From IMG/VR virus record IMGVR_UViG_3300048909_000032: DNA of 49,370 nt; one strand, 5' to 3'. The number at the start of each line of letters is the position of its first letter. Position 1 is the stretch's first letter. Under the pieces are notes generated by a model, which saw only the letters and a program-made list of their open reading frames with translations, made no database searches and was not told the origin of the DNA. Of the stretch, positions 1 through 7,133 are shown piece by piece. The translations under genes and the position numbers were made by a program. This DNA comes from a virus.

Positions 1-127
1 ATGTAAGCTGATCCTCTCGGCTCAAGGTCAGGATAATTCCAGTAAGCACGCTATAGTGACCGCATGTCTCGCGCAGCAGATTGACCAGCACCGCATTCCG
101 CCGCTCGGCGTCCGCAAGGCGCTGCTG
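1..127. repeat. 127-bp terminal direct repeat (second copy at 49244..49370); end overlap of a circular or terminally redundant molecule
   Basis: Bases 1-127 (atgtaagctgatcctctcgg...ggcgctgctg) recur verbatim as the last 127 bases of the window. Confidence 0.95.
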
Positions 128-361
128 AAGATCATCGCCATGGTCAATCATGCGATCTAAGTGGCGGCGATCAATTGCGCAAGAATCCTGAAGGCCGGCC
201 AGCTCTTCCCGCAAAGCAGCGAGCTGGGTGAGGGCGGCATCATAGGTCTTGCGCCAGTCGGTGCCGGAACCGCTGCAAGTCACGCAAGGAACACAGCGCT
301 GACCTTGCTCAAACGTTAGAGTTTTCTCGCCTTTGCAGGTGCTGCATTTCACTTCACTCAT
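1..361 (-). CDS. Small DnaJ-type zinc-finger-like protein, N-terminal part; the ORF leaves the left edge and continues at 49243..49152 across the junction
   Basis: ATG at 361..359. It is absent from the ORF track because no stop occurs before the window edge. Own translation MSEVKCSTCKGEKTLTFEQGQRCVPCVTCSGSGTDWRKTYDAALTQLAALREELAGLQ...NAVLVNLLRETCGHYSVL has two CxxCxGxG-like motifs. The frame runs through the repeat into ORF 49152..49334. Confidence 0.6.
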   Translation of the reverse strand, partial: MSEVKCSTCKGEKTLTFEQGQRCVPCVTCSGSGTDWRKTYDAALTQLAALREELAGLQDSCAIDRRHLDRMIDHGDDLQQRLADAERRNAVLVNLLRETCGHYSVLTGIILTLSREDQLT

Positions 362-412
362 TCCAAAATCTCCCTCATTCGATAATCGACCCGGTGCCGG
401 AGTGGCTGTGGG

Positions 413-574
413 TCACACCTGAGCAGCCATCTTTACCCGCTGCGCCTTGTCCCAGCCCATCTGCCAGCGCTCCCGCGAAAACGGCGCTGCATCCTTGTCA
501 AACGGATTCTGCTTGGCGGACAATCCCTTCAGAAATGCCGCATACCCTTGCTCGAACGCCATCAGCTTTTGCAT
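413..574 (-). CDS. Rmf/CrpP-family small protein (ribosome modulation factor-like), 53 aa
   Basis: AGGAGG lies 6 nt upstream of ATG 574; the track start at 619 looks too long. MQKLMAFEQGYAAFLKGLSAKQNPF..RERWQMGWDKA matches by eye the Rmf core (GY.AG..G.....CPY....R..WL.GW..A). Confidence 0.6.
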   Translation of the reverse strand: MQKLMAFEQGYAAFLKGLSAKQNPFDKDAAPFSRERWQMGWDKAQRVKMAAQV

Positions 575-609
575 GGTCACCTCCTGGTGATCGTTGTGGG
601 ATTGATCGC

Positions 610-1215
610 TTATTGGCACGGCTCCCAGCCAGGAACGCTAAGTCGAACCAAAGTTCTGGCTGTATCCATAGGCACTGGCAGTGATTCGTGAATCATCGTC
701 ACGTTGCCGGCATAGGCCACTCCAGCGAGCAGGCGAACCTCGGAGAGCTGCGACAAATCCATCATCGAGCAGTCTCCACCCTCTCCTGGCATTTCATAGA
801 ACTCGCCGATCAATGCGCGGGATGCGCTGACATCTGAAGCAAGAATCAAGGCTTCCGGCGCAGAAAAGTCGCACTGCGACCAGCCTGGGCTTGGATTCTG
901 CCATTTTCCAGCATGGCCTCCACCTCCACCATGTCGGCCTTTAGCAGCGATCCAATACCCGTCAATATGGGCGCCGGGGCGCCGGTGCGAAGCATTCGCC
1001 CTAACTACGCCTTGATCCACCATTAGATAGATTGGGCCATCAGTATCCACGCCGACAAGCATCTGGTTGACAGTTTCCTGCCAGCGAGACAAGTCCGACG
1101 GCAGGCCTGTTTCAAGCCGGAATTCGCGCATGTAGATGCGCTCCGCCAGGAACGACGGAAACTCAACCTTGCCAATTTCAGTAACGCGACTGACATTCTT
1201 GTTTGTGTAAGTCAT
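610..1215 (-). CDS. Hypothetical protein, candidate 2OG/Fe(II)-oxygenase-like fold (tentative)
   Basis: Track ORF of 201 aa. ATGA start/stop overlap with the recombinase gene at 1212..1215. GAHIDG (HxD), then about 95 aa later MIHES, then RLS, resembles an HxD...H...RxS facial-triad pattern. Contains a Gly-rich insert HGGGGGH. Confidence 0.55.
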   Translation of the reverse strand: MTYTNKNVSRVTEIGKVEFPSFLAERIYMREFRLETGLPSDLSRWQETVNQMLVGVDTDGPIYLMVDQGVVRANASHRRPGAHIDGYWIAAKGRHGGGGGHAGKWQNPSPGWSQCDFSAPEALILASDVSASRALIGEFYEMPGEGGDCSMMDLSQLSEVRLLAGVAYAGNVTMIHESLPVPMDTARTLVRLSVPGWEPCQ

Positions 1216-1832
1216 TTCGGATCCTCGTCAATTTGTTTATCGCGAATCTTGGCTACTGTGGTCGGGCTGCACTCGGCCAATTCGGCCACCCGCTTCACCG
1301 ATAGCGTCTTGTCGGTCATCAGCGCCTTCACCCGTGCGTGCAGCAGCACGTCAACCGGCCTGCCCTTGTACTTCCCGGCCTTCTTGCTTTCTGCGATCCC
1401 TTGAGCCTGTCGGGTAGCTCGCGTCTCCCAGTCATCACGCGCCATCTGCATGGCAACCTTGAGCAGCATGTCCTGCACTGCATCGAGGATGATCCGGGCC
1501 ATTCCGCCGGCCTGAATGTCGGACAGGTCGACAATCCCCGGCACCACTAGCTTCGCCCCCTTCCCTTTGATCGCCGCAATGATCGCTTCTGCCTCTGGCA
1601 ATGGCGCCCGCGTGATGCGATCCATCTTCTCTGCGATCACCACGTCACCCGGCTGCAAATCGGCAATCATCCGATTCAGTGCAGGCCGGTCAGCGCTGGT
1701 GCCGCTCATCTTGTCCTCGTAAATCCCCGCAATGTAATAGCCTTCATCCATCGCCTTTCCTACCAATGCCCGCTGCCGCTCAAGATCCTGTTCGGCTGTG
1801 CTGACGCGCAGGTACACCCTGGCATTCTTCAT
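1212..1832 (-). CDS. Small serine recombinase (resolvase/invertase family) with C-terminal HTH
   Basis: N-terminal ARVYLRVSTAEQDLERQ catalytic-serine motif, conserved RPALNRM and DRITR segments, and C-terminal LSVKRVAELAECSPTTVAKI helix-turn-helix; 206 aa. Confidence 0.9.
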   Translation of the reverse strand: MKNARVYLRVSTAEQDLERQRALVGKAMDEGYYIAGIYEDKMSGTSADRPALNRMIADLQPGDVVIAEKMDRITRAPLPEAEAIIAAIKGKGAKLVVPGIVDLSDIQAGGMARIILDAVQDMLLKVAMQMARDDWETRATRQAQGIAESKKAGKYKGRPVDVLLHARVKALMTDKTLSVKRVAELAECSPTTVAKIRDKQIDEDPK

Positions 1833-1962
1833 AACCTGCTCACTCGTTGTTTTGAGTAGCCAGTAAATCAGAACACATTTAGGATCGTCAATATAAATAT
1901 TTGCCTATTGGAAACATTGGGCCGGGAATCGCCTCGGCTGAGGCATACCCAAAGTGAGAGGG

Positions 1963-2298
1963 TTATGCCGCATCCCGGATCAAACCGTGATTGAGCGCGT
2001 ATCGGTGAGCCTTGCGCAGCCGCTCAGGGTCAAGATCCAGCTCCCGTCCAGCCCCCTCCCAGCTTGAGCCGCGACTTCTCATGTCGTGCGCCTTCTGGAT
2101 GGAGTCGAGCGGGAATGCAGCAGGCTTGCCCGGCTTTCGGTCGTAGCCGTCGAGCCCCTTGCCGATCCCGTTGCGTACCAGATGCGATACCTGGGCCGCG
2201 ATCAGCCGAGGATCGCCACCCAATCCTTCGGCTATACGCTTCCAGCAGCAGCCCTCCTGTCTGAGTTCGTAGGCTAGGGCCAGTTCGTCAAGGGTCAT
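1963..2298 (-). CDS. Hypothetical protein, 111 aa, HTH-like segments
   Basis: Internal ATG 2298 forms an ATGA overlap with the stop of the upstream ORF (2295..2297). The longer track ORF (to 2580) overlaps that gene out of frame. MTLDELALAYELRQEGCCWKRIAEGLG... Confidence 0.55.
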   Translation of the reverse strand: MTLDELALAYELRQEGCCWKRIAEGLGGDPRLIAAQVSHLVRNGIGKGLDGYDRKPGKPAAFPLDSIQKAHDMRSRGSSWEGAGRELDLDPERLRKAHRYALNHGLIRDAA

Positions 2299-2840
2299 GG
2301 CTTCGTCTCGCCGGTATAGGTTCGCCACGGCACATTGCGGCCGCTGACCATGAAGCCCCAGTCGCCACGCCACTTGCTGGTGATGAACAGAGTGAATGCG
2401 CCTTCTGGCTGCACGTAGTCGATGCGGTGGTATTCGCCGAACGTCAGTGTCGCGGTATCGCCTGGGCGCCGAATGATCCGCACTCGTCGCGTTACCGACA
2501 GGGGTGATGCTGAGCCTTGGCGAATGGCTGGCCGCTCTTCGGTATACCCGCCGCGCAGGATGATGGTGCGCGCATTCCACGGGTGCGAGTGCAGGTCGCG
2601 GTCAGCATCCGGCCGCATGATGTGGTGAATTCGGATCGACCACGGGAACCACCAGAATTTCGCCTTGTGCGTCTCGCGGCTGTACGGGTTGAACAGCCAC
2701 CAGCGGCCCATGTACATGTCGGAACCGTCGGCGGACATGATGTGCTGGTACGGGGTGCGCTGGGCTCGGGCGATGAGCCAGTTGGCGATGGCTGGGCGGG
2801 CAAGCAGCTTGGCGAGCAGGCGCCAGAAGAGATTGATCAT
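2295..2840 (-). CDS. Hypothetical protein, 181 aa, His-rich motif HHIMRPDADRDLHSHPW
   Basis: ATG 2840 forms an ATGA overlap with the stop of the DUF2591-like gene. Hydrophobic N-terminus MINLFWRLLAKLLARPAIANWLIA. No family recognised. Confidence 0.6.
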   Translation of the reverse strand: MINLFWRLLAKLLARPAIANWLIARAQRTPYQHIMSADGSDMYMGRWWLFNPYSRETHKAKFWWFPWSIRIHHIMRPDADRDLHSHPWNARTIILRGGYTEERPAIRQGSASPLSVTRRVRIIRRPGDTATLTFGEYHRIDYVQPEGAFTLFITSKWRGDWGFMVSGRNVPWRTYTGETKP

Positions 2841-3196
2841 GATTTCACCAGTTCGGCAGGGACGCGCACGGTGTCGCCCAGCTTGTTGGCGACGATGGCG
2901 CGGCAGGCAGCAATGATCGGTGTTTCTGCATGCCATGCCGCCGTTGAATCTGTCCAAGCGCATGGGTTGCAGGCTTCATCGGAGTAGATGATGCTGACGC
3001 GATACCTAGCGATAAGCGGGCCGCACTGGTGCCAGTTGAACGATGGCATCCAAGGGGATTGCAGGCCAGGACACACGTTTATGCGCAACTCCTTGCCGAG
3101 AGAATCGTCAATCACGATTTCGCAGGCCAATGCCACTGCCCAATCCAGCGCCGGGCCAATCAGTTCAGCCGTCTTCACTTCGGTCGTCTTATCCAT
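2837..3196 (-). CDS. DUF2591 / NinX-like phage protein (paralogue of 19252..19641)
   Basis: ELIGPALDWAVA...NWHQCGPLI...IIAACRAIVANKLGDTVRVPAELV. The C-terminal CRAIV..KLGDTV.VPAELV is shared with the plus-strand paralogue. ATG 3196 in a TGATG overlap; the track start 3199 is GTG. Confidence 0.7.
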   Translation of the reverse strand: MDKTTEVKTAELIGPALDWAVALACEIVIDDSLGKELRINVCPGLQSPWMPSFNWHQCGPLIARYRVSIIYSDEACNPCAWTDSTAAWHAETPIIAACRAIVANKLGDTVRVPAELVKS

Positions 3197-3372
3197 CACT
3201 CACCCTCCTTCTGTGCCGCCCGGTACGCCCGGACGATCTTGTAAATAGCCGCCTTGCTCAACTTGAATCGCTTGGCGGCCTCGTCGGCGCTGTACGTCTG
3301 GTAGCACTCGATAATCTTGGCGTTGCGTGCTGCGTTCTTTCCCGGTTTCGGCCCGGACTTGTGCGTTTTCAT
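3196..3372 (-). CDS. Small HTH protein, 58 aa (below the ORF-track cutoff)
   Basis: Own translation MKTHKSGPKPGKNAARNAKIIECYQTYSADEAAKRFKLSKAAIYKIVRAYRAAQKEGE. ATG 3372 abuts the stop of the pentapeptide gene, and the stop overlaps the next start. Confidence 0.55.
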   Translation of the reverse strand: MKTHKSGPKPGKNAARNAKIIECYQTYSADEAAKRFKLSKAAIYKIVRAYRAAQKEGE

Positions 3373-4056
3373 TCAATCAGCCCCTTTCTCAGGCGCCTCG
3401 TACGGAACGGCAGGCGAGGCCTCAATGATGGTTTTAAGGATCGGTTTCCATATCGACCACCAGGCTGATGCGCGCGAATCCATTTCCTGAATCTCTTCTT
3501 CACTGAACGCCCACCACTCAGTCAGCGTGTGGAACTGGCAGCCGATCTGCATCTTGTCCGCTGTGTACGTCACCGGCCAGAGATCGCACTGCACAGACTT
3601 GATCTGCGACAGATTGCCGACAGCGCCCAAGATTGAAGCGGCGGAGCTCAGGTCGGCGTAGCGCAGGTCGGCGTAGCTCAGGTCGGCGTAGCGCAGGTCG
3701 GCGTAGCGCAGGTCGGCGGAGCGCAGGTTGGCGTAGCGCAGGTCGGCGTAGCGCAGGTCGGCGGAGCGCAGGTCGGCGGAGCGCAGGTCGGCGGAGCTCA
3801 GGTCGGCGGAGCGCAGGTCGGCGTAGCGCAGGTCGGCGGAGCGCAGGTCGGCGGAGCGCAGGTCGGCGGAGCGCAGGTCGGCGGAGCTCAGGTCGGCGGA
3901 GCGCAGGTCGGCGTAGCGCAGGTCGGCGGAGCGCAGGTTGGCGGAGCTCAGGTCGGCGGAGCGCAGGTTGGCCCGTTCGCCGCCCTCTTCGCTATTCAGC
4001 CACGTATGGTGCTTCTGAATGATTTCGGACAGTTGCTCAGTAGTGAAAGTTTTCAT
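3373..4056 (-). CDS. Pentapeptide-repeat protein with a non-repeat C-terminal domain
   Basis: 22 consecutive A(D/N)L(R/S)(S/Y) pentapeptides ([25 protein letters not shown]...) followed by a roughly 85-aa Trp-rich domain. SD ACGGAG lies upstream of ATG 4056. Confidence 0.9.
3641..3970. repeat. Tandem array of 22 near-identical 15-bp units encoding the pentapeptide repeats
   Basis: Units such as gcgcaggtcggcgga / gcgcaggtcggcgta / gctcaggtcggcgga / gcgcaggttggcgga repeat head to tail with only 1-3 variable positions. Confidence 0.9.
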
Positions 4057-4084
4057 TGGTCTTACTCCGTTGATTTGTGTTTGG

Positions 4085-4975
4085 TTAGAGCGCTGCTAGG
4101 GTCCGCTCGTACAGTTCGTCATGCTCGGCGGACATTGGCGATTCGGTCTGCTGGCTCTCGGTTACGGCCACGCCGCCCGACAGGAACCCGGTGACGATCG
4201 GCGCGATGGTCTTGGCCTGCGTCACCAGAAACAGGTGGCCGTCGTTGATGACGTGCAGCTGCGAGCGCGGAATCAGGTTGGCCATCATGCGCATGTTGAC
4301 CAGCGGAATCAGGGGATCATCGTTACCGGCCAGTACCAGCGTTGGCTGTTTGATCTTGTGCAGCCAGTGAGCGGAGGTCCACGCCCAAACGGCCATGGCC
4401 TGATAGTAGTAACCGCGACCGCTCGGCGATTTCATCTTGCTGGTGTGCGCGGTTGCCAGCGACTTGTCGTAACGGAAGGCGCCGCCGTAGATGTCCGGGG
4501 CGATGCGTGCGCCGTGCTCGGGGTCGGTGTAACGTCTTGGACTGGCCATCAGGCTGAGCACCTTGAGCGATGGCGGCACCATGGCCACACCGCAGGAGGT
4601 GGCAGCCAGAATCAGCCGTCTGCATCTGTGCGGCTGGTCATAGGCGAACTGCTGGGCCAGGAAACCGCCCCACGACACGCCGATCACATTCACTTGGTCA
4701 TAGCCCATCACATCCAGCATCGTGGCGACGGTCTTGGCCATGCCGCGAAAGGTGTACGGCAGCAGCGGAGCCGGCGAACCTCCGACACCGGGCACGTCGA
4801 AGGCGATGATCTCTTGGTCGGGGTCCAGCTCATTGGTGAACGGGATTACCAGATCCAGGCTGGCGCCGATACCGTTGAACACCACCAGCGGGGTCAGGTG
4901 CGATTTACCTGGGCGAACCGCCGTCCTGATTGACAACCCATCGACCTGTACAGTGCGGAAAACAAAAGCCTTCAT
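4085..4975 (-). CDS. phaZ: Alpha/beta hydrolase closely resembling Pseudomonas intracellular mcl-poly(3-hydroxyalkanoate) depolymerase PhaZ
   Basis: Near full-length resemblance recalled from Pseudomonas PhaZ: [42 protein letters not shown], lipase box [42 protein letters not shown]. Start set at ATG 4975 (GGAG 9 nt upstream); the track start 5026 is TTG. Confidence 0.85.
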
Positions 4976-4992
4976 TTCGTCGTGCTCCGGTT

Positions 4993-5010
4993 GGTCCTTA
5001 TTGATGGACT
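4993..5010 (-). promoter_or_regulatory. AGTCC-N8-GGAC operator copy just downstream of the candidate phaZ promoter -10
   Basis: The minus strand reads CATAGTGAGTCCATCAATAAGGACC. 15 of 18 positions match the late-promoter copy GAGTCCATGATTAAGGAC at 23807..23824. Confidence 0.55.
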
Positions 5011-5011
5011 C

Positions 5012-5040
5012 ACTATGCGCTGACAATCAGGTTAGGTCAA
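5012..5040 (-). promoter_or_regulatory. Candidate sigma70-type promoter of the phaZ-like moron
   Basis: Minus strand TTGACC (5040..5035), 17 nt, CATAGT (5017..5012). A second TTGAC lies just upstream. Confidence 0.4.
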
Positions 5041-5061
5041 CGAATAAGTCAACTATTCGGA

Positions 5062-5086
5062 CAAAAGGAACCCGGCGAACCGGGCT
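5062..5086 (-). terminator. Rho-independent terminator after gene 5091..5600
   Basis: Minus strand agcccggttcgccgggttcctttt: a 5-bp GC stem, tetraloop, then a T-rich tail. Confidence 0.6.
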
Positions 5087-5090
5087 AGGA

Positions 5091-5600
5091 TTATTCAGAT
5101 ATTGGTGCTGGCTTCTCCATTCTGCACCAGAATGCAACGACCTTTTCACCATCGCTCTTGAACGGAACAAGCCACTGCCCGGACACGCGCTCATAAGAAA
5201 ATGAAAGGTGTACTGCCCGAGTTCGCTCCTTGCCGTCTTCAAATACATCGCCAGGAACGCGAAGCATCGATAATGGTCGACTGTCTTGGTCGAGGGTCGA
5301 GAGTTGCTGAATAAGTTGGCGAACCGTCTTTGGCGCTCCCCACTCCGCTGGATTGGAAGTCGCCTCTATGACACCAGGAAGACCTGTGTTCCGGCAGCAC
5401 TCGATTGCCAAATCTCCCGCGTCGGTAATTTCGTAGCGAGAAAAGCCGAGCGAGCGGATCAGGCCAACGCGCGCCAGCGACTTCATGCGGTCCTTCGGAA
5501 CGTCGTATCCCTGTCCGTCCTCGCTGGTCTCAAAGAAGCGCAGAAGGTCGCGCTTCTGTAGATCGGTCATCGATAGCGATATTTCGACTTTATTACCCAT
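5091..5600 (-). CDS. Hypothetical protein, 169 aa
   Basis: ATG 5600 preceded by GAGGGA and in a TGATG overlap with the upstream micro-ORF. The longer track version (5678) lacks these signals. Confidence 0.6.
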   Translation of the reverse strand: MGNKVEISLSMTDLQKRDLLRFFETSEDGQGYDVPKDRMKSLARVGLIRSLGFSRYEITDAGDLAIECCRNTGLPGVIEATSNPAEWGAPKTVRQLIQQLSTLDQDSRPLSMLRVPGDVFEDGKERTRAVHLSFSYERVSGQWLVPFKSDGEKVVAFWCRMEKPAPISE

Positions 5601-5749
5601 CACTGATCCCTCTGGTATTTGGCCTGTCGCATCTTGGAGCAGGCCGAGTGGTTGCCGGATGCGCGGACCTTTCCGCACATATCGCAGGTGTTGCAGATGA
5701 CAAGGCGCGGCATTGGCGGGCGTGGGTTGCGGCGTCTGCGTGGGGTCAT
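5600..5749 (-). CDS. Small basic Cys-rich (zinc-ribbon-like) protein, 49 aa
   Basis: Own translation MTPRRRRNPRPPMPRLVICNTCDMCGKVRASGNHSACSKMRQAKYQRDQ. ATGA overlap with the MTase stop and TGATG overlap with the next start. Confidence 0.5.
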   Translation of the reverse strand: MTPRRRRNPRPPMPRLVICNTCDMCGKVRASGNHSACSKMRQAKYQRDQ

Positions 5750-6753
5750 TTGCTCAGTATTCCGAATGCTGCTGCTGCCACTCGCGGAACTTGTCCATTG
5801 CCAAGGGCTTTAATTCGGTCCACCCGGCTGGCCACCCCATTAGCCACTCGACCCATTCCGGGTTCAGCTGGCCACCGTCGGAAGCCATCACCGCGTGGTC
5901 CAGCCGGTCGTTCGATCTGTCCGCGCCGGACTTGCGTGTCAGTGCCGCCGGCGATGATCCTTTCGCCATGCTCGCCACGGGAGTCGGCCAAGTCCTGGCT
6001 GATACCGCCTCGATCAGAGTCCCGCCCTCGCGCCCCTTCCTTGGCGTTATCCGTCCGCCCTTGCTTCCCAGTGTTGCAGTTGGTGTCGGCCACAGTTTCG
6101 CTTCCGCAGAAAGCTTCGGCTCCCCTCGACTGTTCCACTTCCCCTGGGCGCGATTTGTCGCATCGTCCGCCACTGGCGTCTGCCATAGCTTCACCGCGCT
6201 GCTCAGACCCCATCCCGCATTCTTGCTTGAGCCCGGCTGATTGTGATTCCCGCAAACGGTTATCGTAGGCCACAACCCAGCAACGCTCGCGCTGATGGGG
6301 CGCTCCAAGGTCGGATGCTGAAACAATGCACCACTGCGCGTCATACCCCATTTCGGCAAGGTCACCGAGGACCATGGCAAGTCCTCTTCCCACAAGCAAA
6401 GGTGAGTTTTCCACGAAGACGACTTTAGGTCGTACCTCGCCGATGATTCGCGCCATTTCTCCCCAGAGTCCAGATCGGGCGCCGTCGATACCGAGGCCAT
6501 TCCCGGCAGCTGATATGTCCTGACACGGGAATCCGCCCGAAACCACGTCAACAAGGCCTCGCCATGGCTTTCCGTCAAAACTGCACACGTCAGACCAAAT
6601 TGGGAAAGTTTCGAGGATTCCATCGTTTTGTCGTTGCGCCAAAACCTGTGCTGCGTAGGCATCACGCTCAACGGCGCAGACGGTGCGCCATCCCAAGAGG
6701 TGGCCGCCGAGAATTCCGCCACCAGCGCCTGCGAAAAGAGCCAGCTCATTCAT
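5746..6753 (-). CDS. DNA (cytosine-5)-methyltransferase, frame A
   Basis: Motif I LFAGAGGG, motif IV GGFPCQDIS, motif VI FVENS, motif VIII APHQRERCW, C-terminal WPAEPGMGRVANGVASRVDRIKALGNGQVP (motif X). GGAGGA lies 5 nt upstream of ATG 6753. The middle roughly 140 aa is G/R/D/E/S-rich low complexity. Confidence 0.88.
   Translation of the reverse strand: MNELALFAGAGGGILGGHLLGWRTVCAVERDAYAAQVLAQRQNDGILETFPIWSDVCSFDGKPWRGLVDVVSGGFPCQDISAAGNGLGIDGARSGLWGEMARIIGEVRPKVVFVENSPLLVGRGLAMVLGDLAEMGYDAQWCIVSASDLGAPHQRERCWVVAYDNRLRESQSAGLKQECGMGSEQRGEAMADASGGRCDKSRPGEVEQSRGAEAFCGSETVADTNCNTGKQGRTDNAKEGARGRDSDRGGISQDLADSRGEHGERIIAGGTDTQVRRGQIERPAGPRGDGFRRWPAEPGMGRVANGVASRVDRIKALGNGQVPRVAAAAFGILSK
5754..6749 (-). 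CDS. Alternative-frame ORF (frame B, 331 codons) almost co-extensive with the MTase gene; carries TRD-like WPTP repeats and an LMGWPAGWT motif
   Basis: ATG 6749 is 4 nt downstream of the frame-A ATG and behind the same SD. Contains LWPTITV, LWQTPVADD, LWPTPTATLGSKGG, TWPTPVASMAKG and LNPEWVEWLMGWPAGWT. Third codon positions look more G/C-rich than in frame A by eye. Confidence 0.45.
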   Translation of the reverse strand: MSWLFSQALVAEFSAATSWDGAPSAPLSVMPTQHRFWRNDKTMESSKLSQFGLTCAVLTESHGEALLTWFRADSRVRTYQLPGMASVSTAPDLDSGEKWRESSARYDLKSSSWKTHLCLWEEDLPWSSVTLPKWGMTRSGALFQHPTLERPISASVAGLWPTITVCGNHNQPGSSKNAGWGLSSAVKLWQTPVADDATNRAQGKWNSRGEPKLSAEAKLWPTPTATLGSKGGRITPRKGREGGTLIEAVSARTWPTPVASMAKGSSPAALTRKSGADRSNDRLDHAVMASDGGQLNPEWVEWLMGWPAGWTELKPLAMDKFREWQQQHSEY

Positions 6754-7133
6754 GCATCCTCCAGGATATCCATCTGTTTCGTCTTGCACTCCCGCTCACC
6801 AATCGGCAGCGGTGCCAGCTGCGAGTCGCTCGGATTCTTCATCAGTTCCCGGCGCGATTCATTCTCGAACTTGTCGCGCAACGTTTTGCTGATCACGACT
6901 TTATGGCGCGGGGGTCGTAGGAACTCGACAAGCTCGGCGTCGGTCATGGCGTCCATCTTGAGGATGGCCAGCTGGATGACTTCGCTGATCTCTGGTGTGC
7001 TCGACCGATCACGGATTCGATCCATTGCCGCCTCGATGCCTGGCCGTACCTTATGTCGAAGTTCCTTTTCTGCGAGCTTGCCACGCTTGGCTGCGGCCTT
7101 CTGGCTGCGCTGCTGGGTTGTCATTGCGGTCAT
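6750..7133 (-). CDS. Hypothetical protein, 127 aa
   Basis: Track ORF. Its stop overlaps the MTase start (ATGA) and its start overlaps the upstream stop. Confidence 0.6.
   Translation of the reverse strand: MTAMTTQQRSQKAAAKRGKLAEKELRHKVRPGIEAAMDRIRDRSSTPEISEVIQLAILKMDAMTDAELVEFLRPPRHKVVISKTLRDKFENESRRELMKNPSDSQLAPLPIGERECKTKQMDILEDA

Follow-up and report, generated by a model that had tools for sequence, protein, structure and literature searches.

Two nearly co-extensive reading frames at a phage C5 DNA methyltransferase locus: a candidate alpha/beta enzyme from one stretch of DNA

Why should about 1 kb of phage DNA stay open in two frames of the same strand, with different parts of what looks like a single enzyme in each? 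This question is raised by a locus in IMG/VR virus record IMGVR_UViG_3300048909_000032, of which one strand of 49,370 nucleotides (nt), here called the window, was analyzed. An earlier note, made from the sequence alone, had described two nearly co-extensive minus-strand open reading frames (ORFs) at this locus (here, frames A and B), with ATG codons 4 nt apart behind one GGAGGA Shine-Dalgarno (SD) sequence. Three explanations had been offered: (i) an overprinted pair, consisting of a catalytic and a target-recognizing protein made from alternative starts, (ii) recoding from A to B and back to A, which would build one methyltransferase, and (iii) two assembly indels. The coordinates of the ORFs, starts, and SD are confirmed (Table 1); in the window both frames are free of stops from end to end, and about 996 of the 1,008 nt would be read in both frames. 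We favor explanation (i), with a probability of roughly 0.8. The locus would thus encode an alpha/beta heterodimeric C5 DNA methyltransferase whose two chains come from one DNA stretch by dual initiation. The conservation of both ORFs and of their starts, the avoidance of stops, and the known enzyme M.EcoHK31I favor this explanation, and it is from the sequence comparisons below that we infer that both frames are translated and that their products form an active heterodimer.

Division of the methyltransferase motifs between two frames

Frame A contains the catalytic part of the enzyme. Its amino acids (aa) 4 to 180 match Pfam family PF00145 (E = 7e-33), it matches M.HhaI residues 15 to 175, and a match to phrog_363 spans aa 1 to 330; the match to TIGR00675 (dcm; 1.5e-24) is under that model's curated cut-off. 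Motifs I, IV, VI, and VIII are present on one chain, and motif X (GNxV/xxP) is C-terminal, as in C5 methyltransferases. A target-recognition domain (TRD) and motif IX, placed in such enzymes between motifs VIII and X of the same chain, are missing from A. Between VIII and X there is a low-complexity spacer without a match, and no motif IX pattern was found in frame A.

TRD and motif IX are found in frame B. It contains GLWPTITV, LWQTPVADD, LWPTPTATLGSKGG, TWPTPVASMAKG, and QLNPEWVEWLMGWPAGWT, and it terminates 20 residues past motif IX. Profile searches gave no match for frame B in Pfam, NCBIfam, or PDB sequences; it matches PHROG families labeled DNA methyltransferase. The correspondence between the two frames and a single-chain enzyme is seen in alignments with two phage proteins. 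Residues 5 to 206 of Filuzino gp68 (Mycobacterium phage) align with A 5 to 187 (2e-36), while its LPTP-repeat TRD and the segment EWMMGWPAGW, the latter aligning to motif IX of B, correspond to B 182 to 315 (1e-6). The C-terminal part of Leonard gp5 (Gordonia phage) aligns to the window at 5870 to 5823 in frame B (motif IX) and at 5829 to 5764 in frame A (motif X). It follows from these alignments that the order of the canonical enzyme is A, then B, then A.

The motifs listed in the earlier note hold. Motifs I, IV, VI, and VIII and the motif X tail of A agree with their coordinates, the PF00145 match, and the Leonard gp5 alignment, and the middle of B is indeed the target-recognition region, given its alignment to the Filuzino TRD and motif IX. 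The middle of A, which had been described as rich in G, R, D, E, and S and similar to off-frame translation, is a stop-free spacer under weak amino acid constraint. The statement that the same DNA at about 5754 to 5880 encodes two motifs in two frames goes a little too far: both motifs are present, but they are not superimposed. The core of motif IX (B, 5870 to 5817/5823) and that of motif X (A, 5829 to 5764) are adjacent and share a few bases, and only their flanks overlap. The third codon positions of B are richer in GC than those of A, as had been noted (0.69 to 0.74 versus 0.43 to 0.63; other genes in the window, 0.68 to 0.80). This difference is partly expected from the frame offset, because position 3 of A would double as position 2 of B and position 3 of B is position 1 of A.

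The start region is shared as well. The sequence ATGAATG at 6747 to 6753 forms a 5' coupling junction, which combines the TGA of the upstream gene, the ATG of A, and the ATG of B. Among 55 distinct upstream contexts of related loci, the A start is ATG in 40, GTG in 13, and TTG in 2 and lies 4 to 5 nt from the SD, and B starts with ATG in 52 and with GTG in 3, at 8 to 9 nt from the SD; B keeps ATG or GTG even in loci where A starts with GTG or TTG. Most of these contexts have a purine-rich SD with spacing as in the window, and in 23 of the 55 the upstream gene terminates at the equivalent TGA. At the other end, a 3' coupling junction is seen at 5746 to 5749, where the A stop overlaps (ATGA) the start of a Cys-rich ORF of 49 aa (5749 to 5600).

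Table 1. Features of the overlapping methyltransferase frames in the window
Feature	Position	Strand	Frame or remark
Frame A ORF (alpha-like, 335 aa: catalytic large domain, spacer, motif X)	5746-6753	minus	ATG 6753; stop 5748-5746
Frame B ORF (beta-like, 331 aa)	5754-6749	minus	+1 relative to A; ATG 6749, 4 nt after the A ATG; stop 5756-5754
Shared SD GGAGGA	6757-6762	minus	3 nt ahead of the A start, 7 nt ahead of the B start
TGA of upstream gene (6750-7133)	6750-6752	minus	Overlaps A start (ATGA), abuts B start (TGAATG)
Motif I, FAGAGGG	6735-6715	minus	A
Motif IV, GGFPCQD (PCQ, catalytic Cys)	6537-6517	minus	A
Motif VI, ENS	6411-6403	minus	A
Motif VIII, QRER	6294-6283	minus	A
Spacer, G/R/E/S/D-rich, stop-free (A aa 166-293)	5875-6258	minus	A; DNA shared with TRD region of B
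Motif X tail, SRVDRIKALGNGQVPRVAAAAF	5764-5829	minus	A; aligns to SRSDQLKAIGNGVCPPQAYAAI of Leonard gp5 (5e-6)
Overprinted N-terminal half (B aa 1-163)	6259-6753	minus	B; on motifs I-VIII of A
RYDLKSSSWKT	6437-6405	minus	B, N-terminal half
LPKWGMTRSG	6359-6330	minus	B, N-terminal half
Stretch ~80% identical in DNA to actinobacteriophage methylase genes (90 nt; query 527-617)	6284-6374	minus	GYDAxW...GAPHxRER in A, GMTRSG in B
Target-recognition region, four W/L-P-T-P modules (6278-6255, 6188-6162, 6095-6054, 5993-5958)	5875-6258	minus	B
Motif IX, QLNPEWVEWLMGWPAGWT	5817-5870	minus	B; aligns to LNAAFAEWMMMLPAG of Leonard gp5 (2e-4)
Conserved tail, ELKPLAMDKFREWQQQHSEY	5816-5757	minus	B; same DNA as motif X of A

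Conservation of the pair and selection on both frames

Our analysis shows that the pair is not peculiar to the window. The same two ORFs, with starts 4 nt apart, occur in Acinetobacter phage ABMM1 (A/B, 304/298 aa), Salmonella S9-5 (244/247 aa), and Pseudomonas phPA-G (239/242 aa). Pseudomonas phage PS-1 has a pair of 234/228 aa and keeps the ATGAATGAG context, with the annotated A start further upstream; in Vibrio phage 1.091.O (240/232 aa) the starts are 19 nt apart. A first set of 83 loci was taken from 80 IMG/VR contigs and three phages, with the window added in the same analysis. Both frames are open throughout in 81 of the 83, and the lengths of A and B co-vary over 239 to 344 aa. A second set, 75 loci from species-representative genomes, was chosen solely via motif IX at the end of B and covers Pseudomonas, Acinetobacter, Burkholderiales, Verrucomicrobiota, Planctomycetota, Bacteroidota, Chloroflexota, and Campylobacterota. 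In 64 of these, the open part of frame A takes in motifs I, IV, and X, and in 63 of the 64 B extends back to motif I, while the third frame is open for just 7 to 17 codons in most loci of the set.

B-like proteins are numerous. At least 6849 B homologues have already been called as proteins, and 33,574 clusters of B-like proteins at 50% identity are found with E values of up to 0.001, 3,732 of them with E values of up to 1e-30. The two members of a pair are rarely called together: PGAP (Prokaryotic Genome Annotation Pipeline) calls A (only A in E. coli), and some other gene callers call B, as "hypothetical."

In three diverged loci, an HNH-type endonuclease gene (MNTCPVCNQEF...HHKNEIKTDN...) is inserted directly after codon 7 of the methyltransferase gene (L044, ~2038 to 2480; L072, ~134 to 575; L066, ~1946 to 2497). 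ATGAATGAGCTGGCTCTTTTC is left upstream of the insert, and A restarts downstream of it as M/L-RELALFAG with its own SD. In all three copies B is open for 146 codons across the insert, starting with MSWLFS (L044 and L072) or MTWLFS (L066).

The openness of both frames exceeds chance. When codons were permuted synonymously within genes, which is a conservative procedure since the codon usage that it keeps is already shaped by the overlap, each off-frame part was open in about 6% of trials (median over genes). In the window, the N-terminal half of B was open in 20% of trials, and the middle (the A spacer) was open in 0 of 500. The layout also recurs in nearly all relatives.

Selection on each frame was examined with conditioned tests that count only changes leaving the protein of the other frame unaltered, namely, those silent in A for the N-terminal half and those silent in B for the middle. 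The p values below describe patterns across sites, not independent lineages, since the loci are phylogenetically related. In the N-terminal half, B-stopping changes that are silent in A occur at 2 of 20 opportunities, compared with 222 of 343 for the remaining A-silent changes (p = 1e-6); the third-frame control gives 10 of 13. The A-silent changes that are seen are also more conservative in B than those that are not (combined p = 9e-7; third-frame control, 0.01). When B 2 to 60 and B 60 to 125 are taken separately, each avoids stops and changes conservatively (p = 0.002 to 0.003), with a signal also in 125 to 160, and there is constraint on the C-terminal tail of B as well (p = 8.5e-5). For the middle, A-stopping changes that are silent in B occur at 1 of 9 opportunities versus 79 of 88 (p = 1e-6), and at 3 of 7 versus 42 of 46. 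B-silent changes there are near saturation apart from the A-stopping ones, and amino acid constraint on the A spacer is weak (p = 0.025 and 0.26). Thus, B is constrained as a protein over its full length, and the middle of A is a spacer that needs only to stay open. Stop-creating silent changes are selectively absent from both off-frame parts.

An OLGenie-style dNN/dNS ratio was also calculated for B (0.52). It was dropped when the noncoding third frame gave 1.6, and the conditioned tests replaced it because it is confounded by the position-specific constraint of A itself.

Relatives with other architectures

Related enzymes divide the same motifs between frames in different ways. The single-chain enzymes of actinobacteriophages (Filuzino gp68 and Leonard gp5) share with the window the motif set, the LPTP-repeat TRD, and motif IX, but everything is in one frame and there is no long open +1 frame. 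In a split type, represented by Mycobacterium phage Wander gp79/gp78 and Streptomyces phage Sebastisaurus gp34/35, a +1 ORF carries the TRD and motifs IX and X. In a nested type, the A-like ORF has regained motif X and contains a B-like ORF that begins 130 to 200 nt into it; SG4, Microbacterium R1, Stenotrophomonas SBP2phi2, and Paenibacillus Jacopo belong to this type, and in the last of these both coding sequences are annotated. The window and its proteobacterial relatives represent the co-extensive type. It is likely that two ancient, fixed frameshifts were the evolutionary origin of this layout. The stretch of DNA that remains similar to actinobacteriophage methylase genes (Table 1) includes the GMTRSG element of B, and Wander ORF2 carries the same element in the +1 frame.

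A Paraburkholderia variant (L149, 1483 to 2997; L162 and L165, 1339 to 2571) has motif X in B, which is 411 to 505 aa long and contains in a single frame, in this order, the TRD, motif IX, a DLAP...W..Q tail, and motif X. Its A ends directly after motif VIII while B spans all of A, so that alpha is wholly nested in beta. This variant is a natural control, indicating that the middle of A is kept open only when the tail of A carries motif X.

Annotation of these relatives is uneven. Hundreds of actinobacteriophage records have two consecutive genes annotated as "DNA methylase." In Wander (L085, 1120 to 2215) the second gene, in the +1 frame, is open to GTG 1481, compared with the annotated start at 1631, and overlaps motifs VII and VIII of the first gene. 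Nested B-like ORFs of 185 to 202 aa with motif IX lie unannotated inside the methyltransferase genes of L086 (1059 to 1667; Mycobacterium phage SG4), L088 (1065 to 1664), and L089 (1092 to 1646).

Explanations of the layout and their meaning

If the locus encodes a heterodimer, ribosomes recruited by the one SD, or terminating at the upstream TGA, would start at either the A or the B codon. Alpha (A) would supply the S-adenosylmethionine-binding and catalytic large domain (motifs I to VIII), a spacer of about 130 residues whose sole detectable requirement is the absence of stops, and the motif X segment. The N-terminal half of beta (B), overprinted on the catalytic domain, probably docks onto alpha, by analogy with M.EcoHK31I beta, and the WPTP-repeat TRD and motif IX of beta would make up the small domain. 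The two chains would then assemble into an active enzyme, which may methylate phage or prophage DNA against restriction.

M.EcoHK31I is the sole characterized precedent for a beta chain encoded in another frame inside an alpha gene. Two published accounts (PMC2836561, PMC3404938) describe this E. coli enzyme (YGGCCR; Lee, Kam and Shaw 1995) as a C5-methyltransferase of alpha and beta, with the beta coding sequence on the same strand, in a different frame, and wholly within the alpha gene, and report that silent removal of the beta starts abolishes activity. According to one of them (PMC2836561), about 40 N-terminal residues of beta are dispensable in vitro, and internal Met codons can be used as starts. 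Frame A resembles M.EcoHK31I alpha in having motifs I to VIII and X without IX, and the length of alpha (~309 aa) falls within the 239- to 344-aa span of the frame A proteins; frame B resembles beta in its placement within the A gene, on the same strand and in another frame, and in carrying motif IX. The M.EcoHK31I beta is nested (176 aa, starting inside alpha), whereas B of the window is co-extensive and starts 4 nt after A behind the shared SD. M.AquI (CYCGRG; Karreman and de Waard 1990, as cited in PMC3404938) is the other natural two-chain C5-methyltransferase. It likewise has motifs I to VIII on one chain and IX on the other, but its beta contains both IX and X and its genes lie side by side, whereas in the window X returns to alpha and the genes overlap fully. 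The AquI-type partition does exist among relatives of the window (L085 [Wander gp79/gp78], L091, Sebastisaurus gp34/35, and Paraburkholderia L149/L162). Our literature searches, which were of limited coverage, turned up no account in which this phage family is treated as a pair of overlapping genes.

A few observations speak against the heterodimer. One of the 83 loci (L013) has a stop in B, at ~2850, with A intact. Five of the 75 have a broken A frame: in L131 and L158, whose B is intact and whose A tail is still open, the A spacer contains a single stop, and L148, L160, and L171 show an interrupted A frame (span analysis only). The layout can therefore decay or tolerates breaks. Several of the broken copies are on contigs of metagenome-assembled genomes, for which sequencing error, decay, and a tolerated break are alternatives. 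Furthermore, the literature predicts the TRD of M.EcoHK31I to be in alpha, in contrast to the TRD repeats in B of the window, and the likeness to M.EcoHK31I is one of layout and motif partition. AlphaFold2 monomer models have a mean pLDDT (predicted local distance difference test) of 49 for B and 48 for A. Since much of the Pfam-certified domain of A (aa 1 to 93) is itself below 60, these models inform neither way on folding and carry no weight.

Recoding would join the same segments in one chain: translation would begin at the A start, shift +1 into B after motif VIII, and shift -1 back into A after motif IX, yielding a single canonical methyltransferase. The segments are indeed collinear with the single-chain enzymes, motif IX of B and motif X of A are immediate neighbors on the DNA, and most loci have TTAAAG at the IX-X junction, in which A_AAG could permit a low-level -1 slip. 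Programmed frameshifting would be marked by a conserved slippery site and by off-frame parts free to gain stops. Across loci, the IX-X junction has no conserved slippery site and no slippery heptamer, and A_AAG is replaced in loci that keep both ORFs (e.g., L001, L002, L003, L035, L040, L043, and L056); the A-to-B junction, inspected by eye in the window sequence only, shows no homopolymer or known +1 site. Recoding needs only partial openness, yet the N-terminal half of B and the A spacer are kept stop-free by selection, and B retains its own start codon. Moreover, GMTRSG of B and motifs VII and VIII of A use the same DNA, so one chain cannot hold both, and the characterized precedent acts as two chains. 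Double recoding is therefore very unlikely, leaving as it does the off-frame openness unexplained. Even less credible is an artefact or pseudogene, in which a single-frame gene was broken by a pair of indels, whether through misassembly or through recent decay, and the long off-frame ORFs are accidental. Two frameshifts do separate the layout of the window from its single-chain relatives, and an extra stop is present in a few relatives (L013, L131, and L158). However, the identical layout recurs in independent isolates and complete genomes of several phyla, over 239 to 344 aa, with selection against stops in both off-frame parts and a third frame that closes every 7 to 17 codons. These family-wide comparative data, from distant phages and bacterial phyla, exclude assembly error and pseudogene formation alike.

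A heterodimer of a more limited kind is the least improbable of the alternatives, though we still regard it as unlikely. B could be made from an internal start, its first 45 to 125 codons being open for another reason, or A could be active alone with B as an independent accessory protein. The B-like ORFs of SG4, Microbacterium R1, SBP2phi2, and Jacopo do start 130 to 200 nt inside A, the more distant versions of B, in PS-1 and Vibrio, show little conservation over their first 100 residues, and M.EcoHK31I beta, in the account cited above, tolerates its N-terminal loss in vitro and has internal Met starts. Internal initiation of B may account for part of the product. On the other hand, proteobacterial B is open back to an ATG or GTG 8 to 9 nt from the SD in essentially every locus, and it is open to its start even in Paraburkholderia, where A ends early; the stop avoidance and conservative change in both B 2 to 60 and B 60 to 125 also argue for a full-length B. 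As for A acting alone, it has no TRD and no motif IX, and M.EcoHK31I, the one characterized split enzyme of this layout, needs the motif IX chain for activity. A heterodimer with full-length beta, made by dual initiation, remains the explanation that we prefer.

In the window, small genes form a leftward operon, of which the methyltransferase is the distal member (window 1 to 5100 versus 5100 to 49370), and from ~16 kb there are long rightward ORFs which, by their layout, resemble a late or structural module. The arrangement looks like that of an integrated lambdoid prophage of a Pseudomonas-like host, and the nearest relatives are Pseudomonas prophages. M.EcoHK31I is part of a restriction-modification system. 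Beside the methyltransferase of the window, none of the few flanking ORFs that were read stood out as a restriction gene, and the neighbors were not scanned against a family library. Two antisense ORFs, 5648 to 6268 and 5713 to 6240 on the plus strand (206 and 175 aa), lie over the TRD and spacer region. They are probably shadow ORFs, a consequence of two sense frames without TTA, CTA, and TCA.

Second proteins from another frame of the same strand are well known in phages, as in lambda Rz1 within Rz and phiX174 E within D. Those overlaps span about 180 to 280 nt and yield unrelated proteins, whereas in the window ~1 kb of DNA would be dual-coding, and its products would be halves of one ancestral enzyme. 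Compared with M.EcoHK31I, what is new is the co-extensive B with a shared initiation site, a TRD recognizable in beta, and a very large, mostly unannotated family. A broader proposal has, in our judgment, an even chance of being right as a whole: that the whole ~1-kb gene is dual-coding in thousands of phage and prophage methyltransferases, that the N-terminal half of B is an alpha-docking domain born in the +1 frame of motifs I to VIII, that specificity resides in beta, and that the series from single-chain through split and nested to co-extensive enzymes is a route to long overlaps. If it is true, TRD modules would be swappable provided that the alpha frame stays stop-free, and a long overlap would arise by partitioning one gene between frames, not by inventing a new protein. 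Each gene of this family that is listed in bacterial genomes as a short "DNA cytosine methyltransferase" would then represent half an enzyme, and for a large class of phage methyltransferases that act against restriction, the subunit bearing specificity would be absent from annotation and from methylome-to-gene assignments. The graded natural series, including the variant with motif X moved, may be used to study the origin of overlaps and the constraint that they share, and the family may be a source of many natural heterodimeric C5-methyltransferases, a kind of enzyme already used in split-enzyme targeted methylation. If both frames are translated, these genes would be among the longest and most widely conserved same-strand overlapping pairs in bacteria and viruses.

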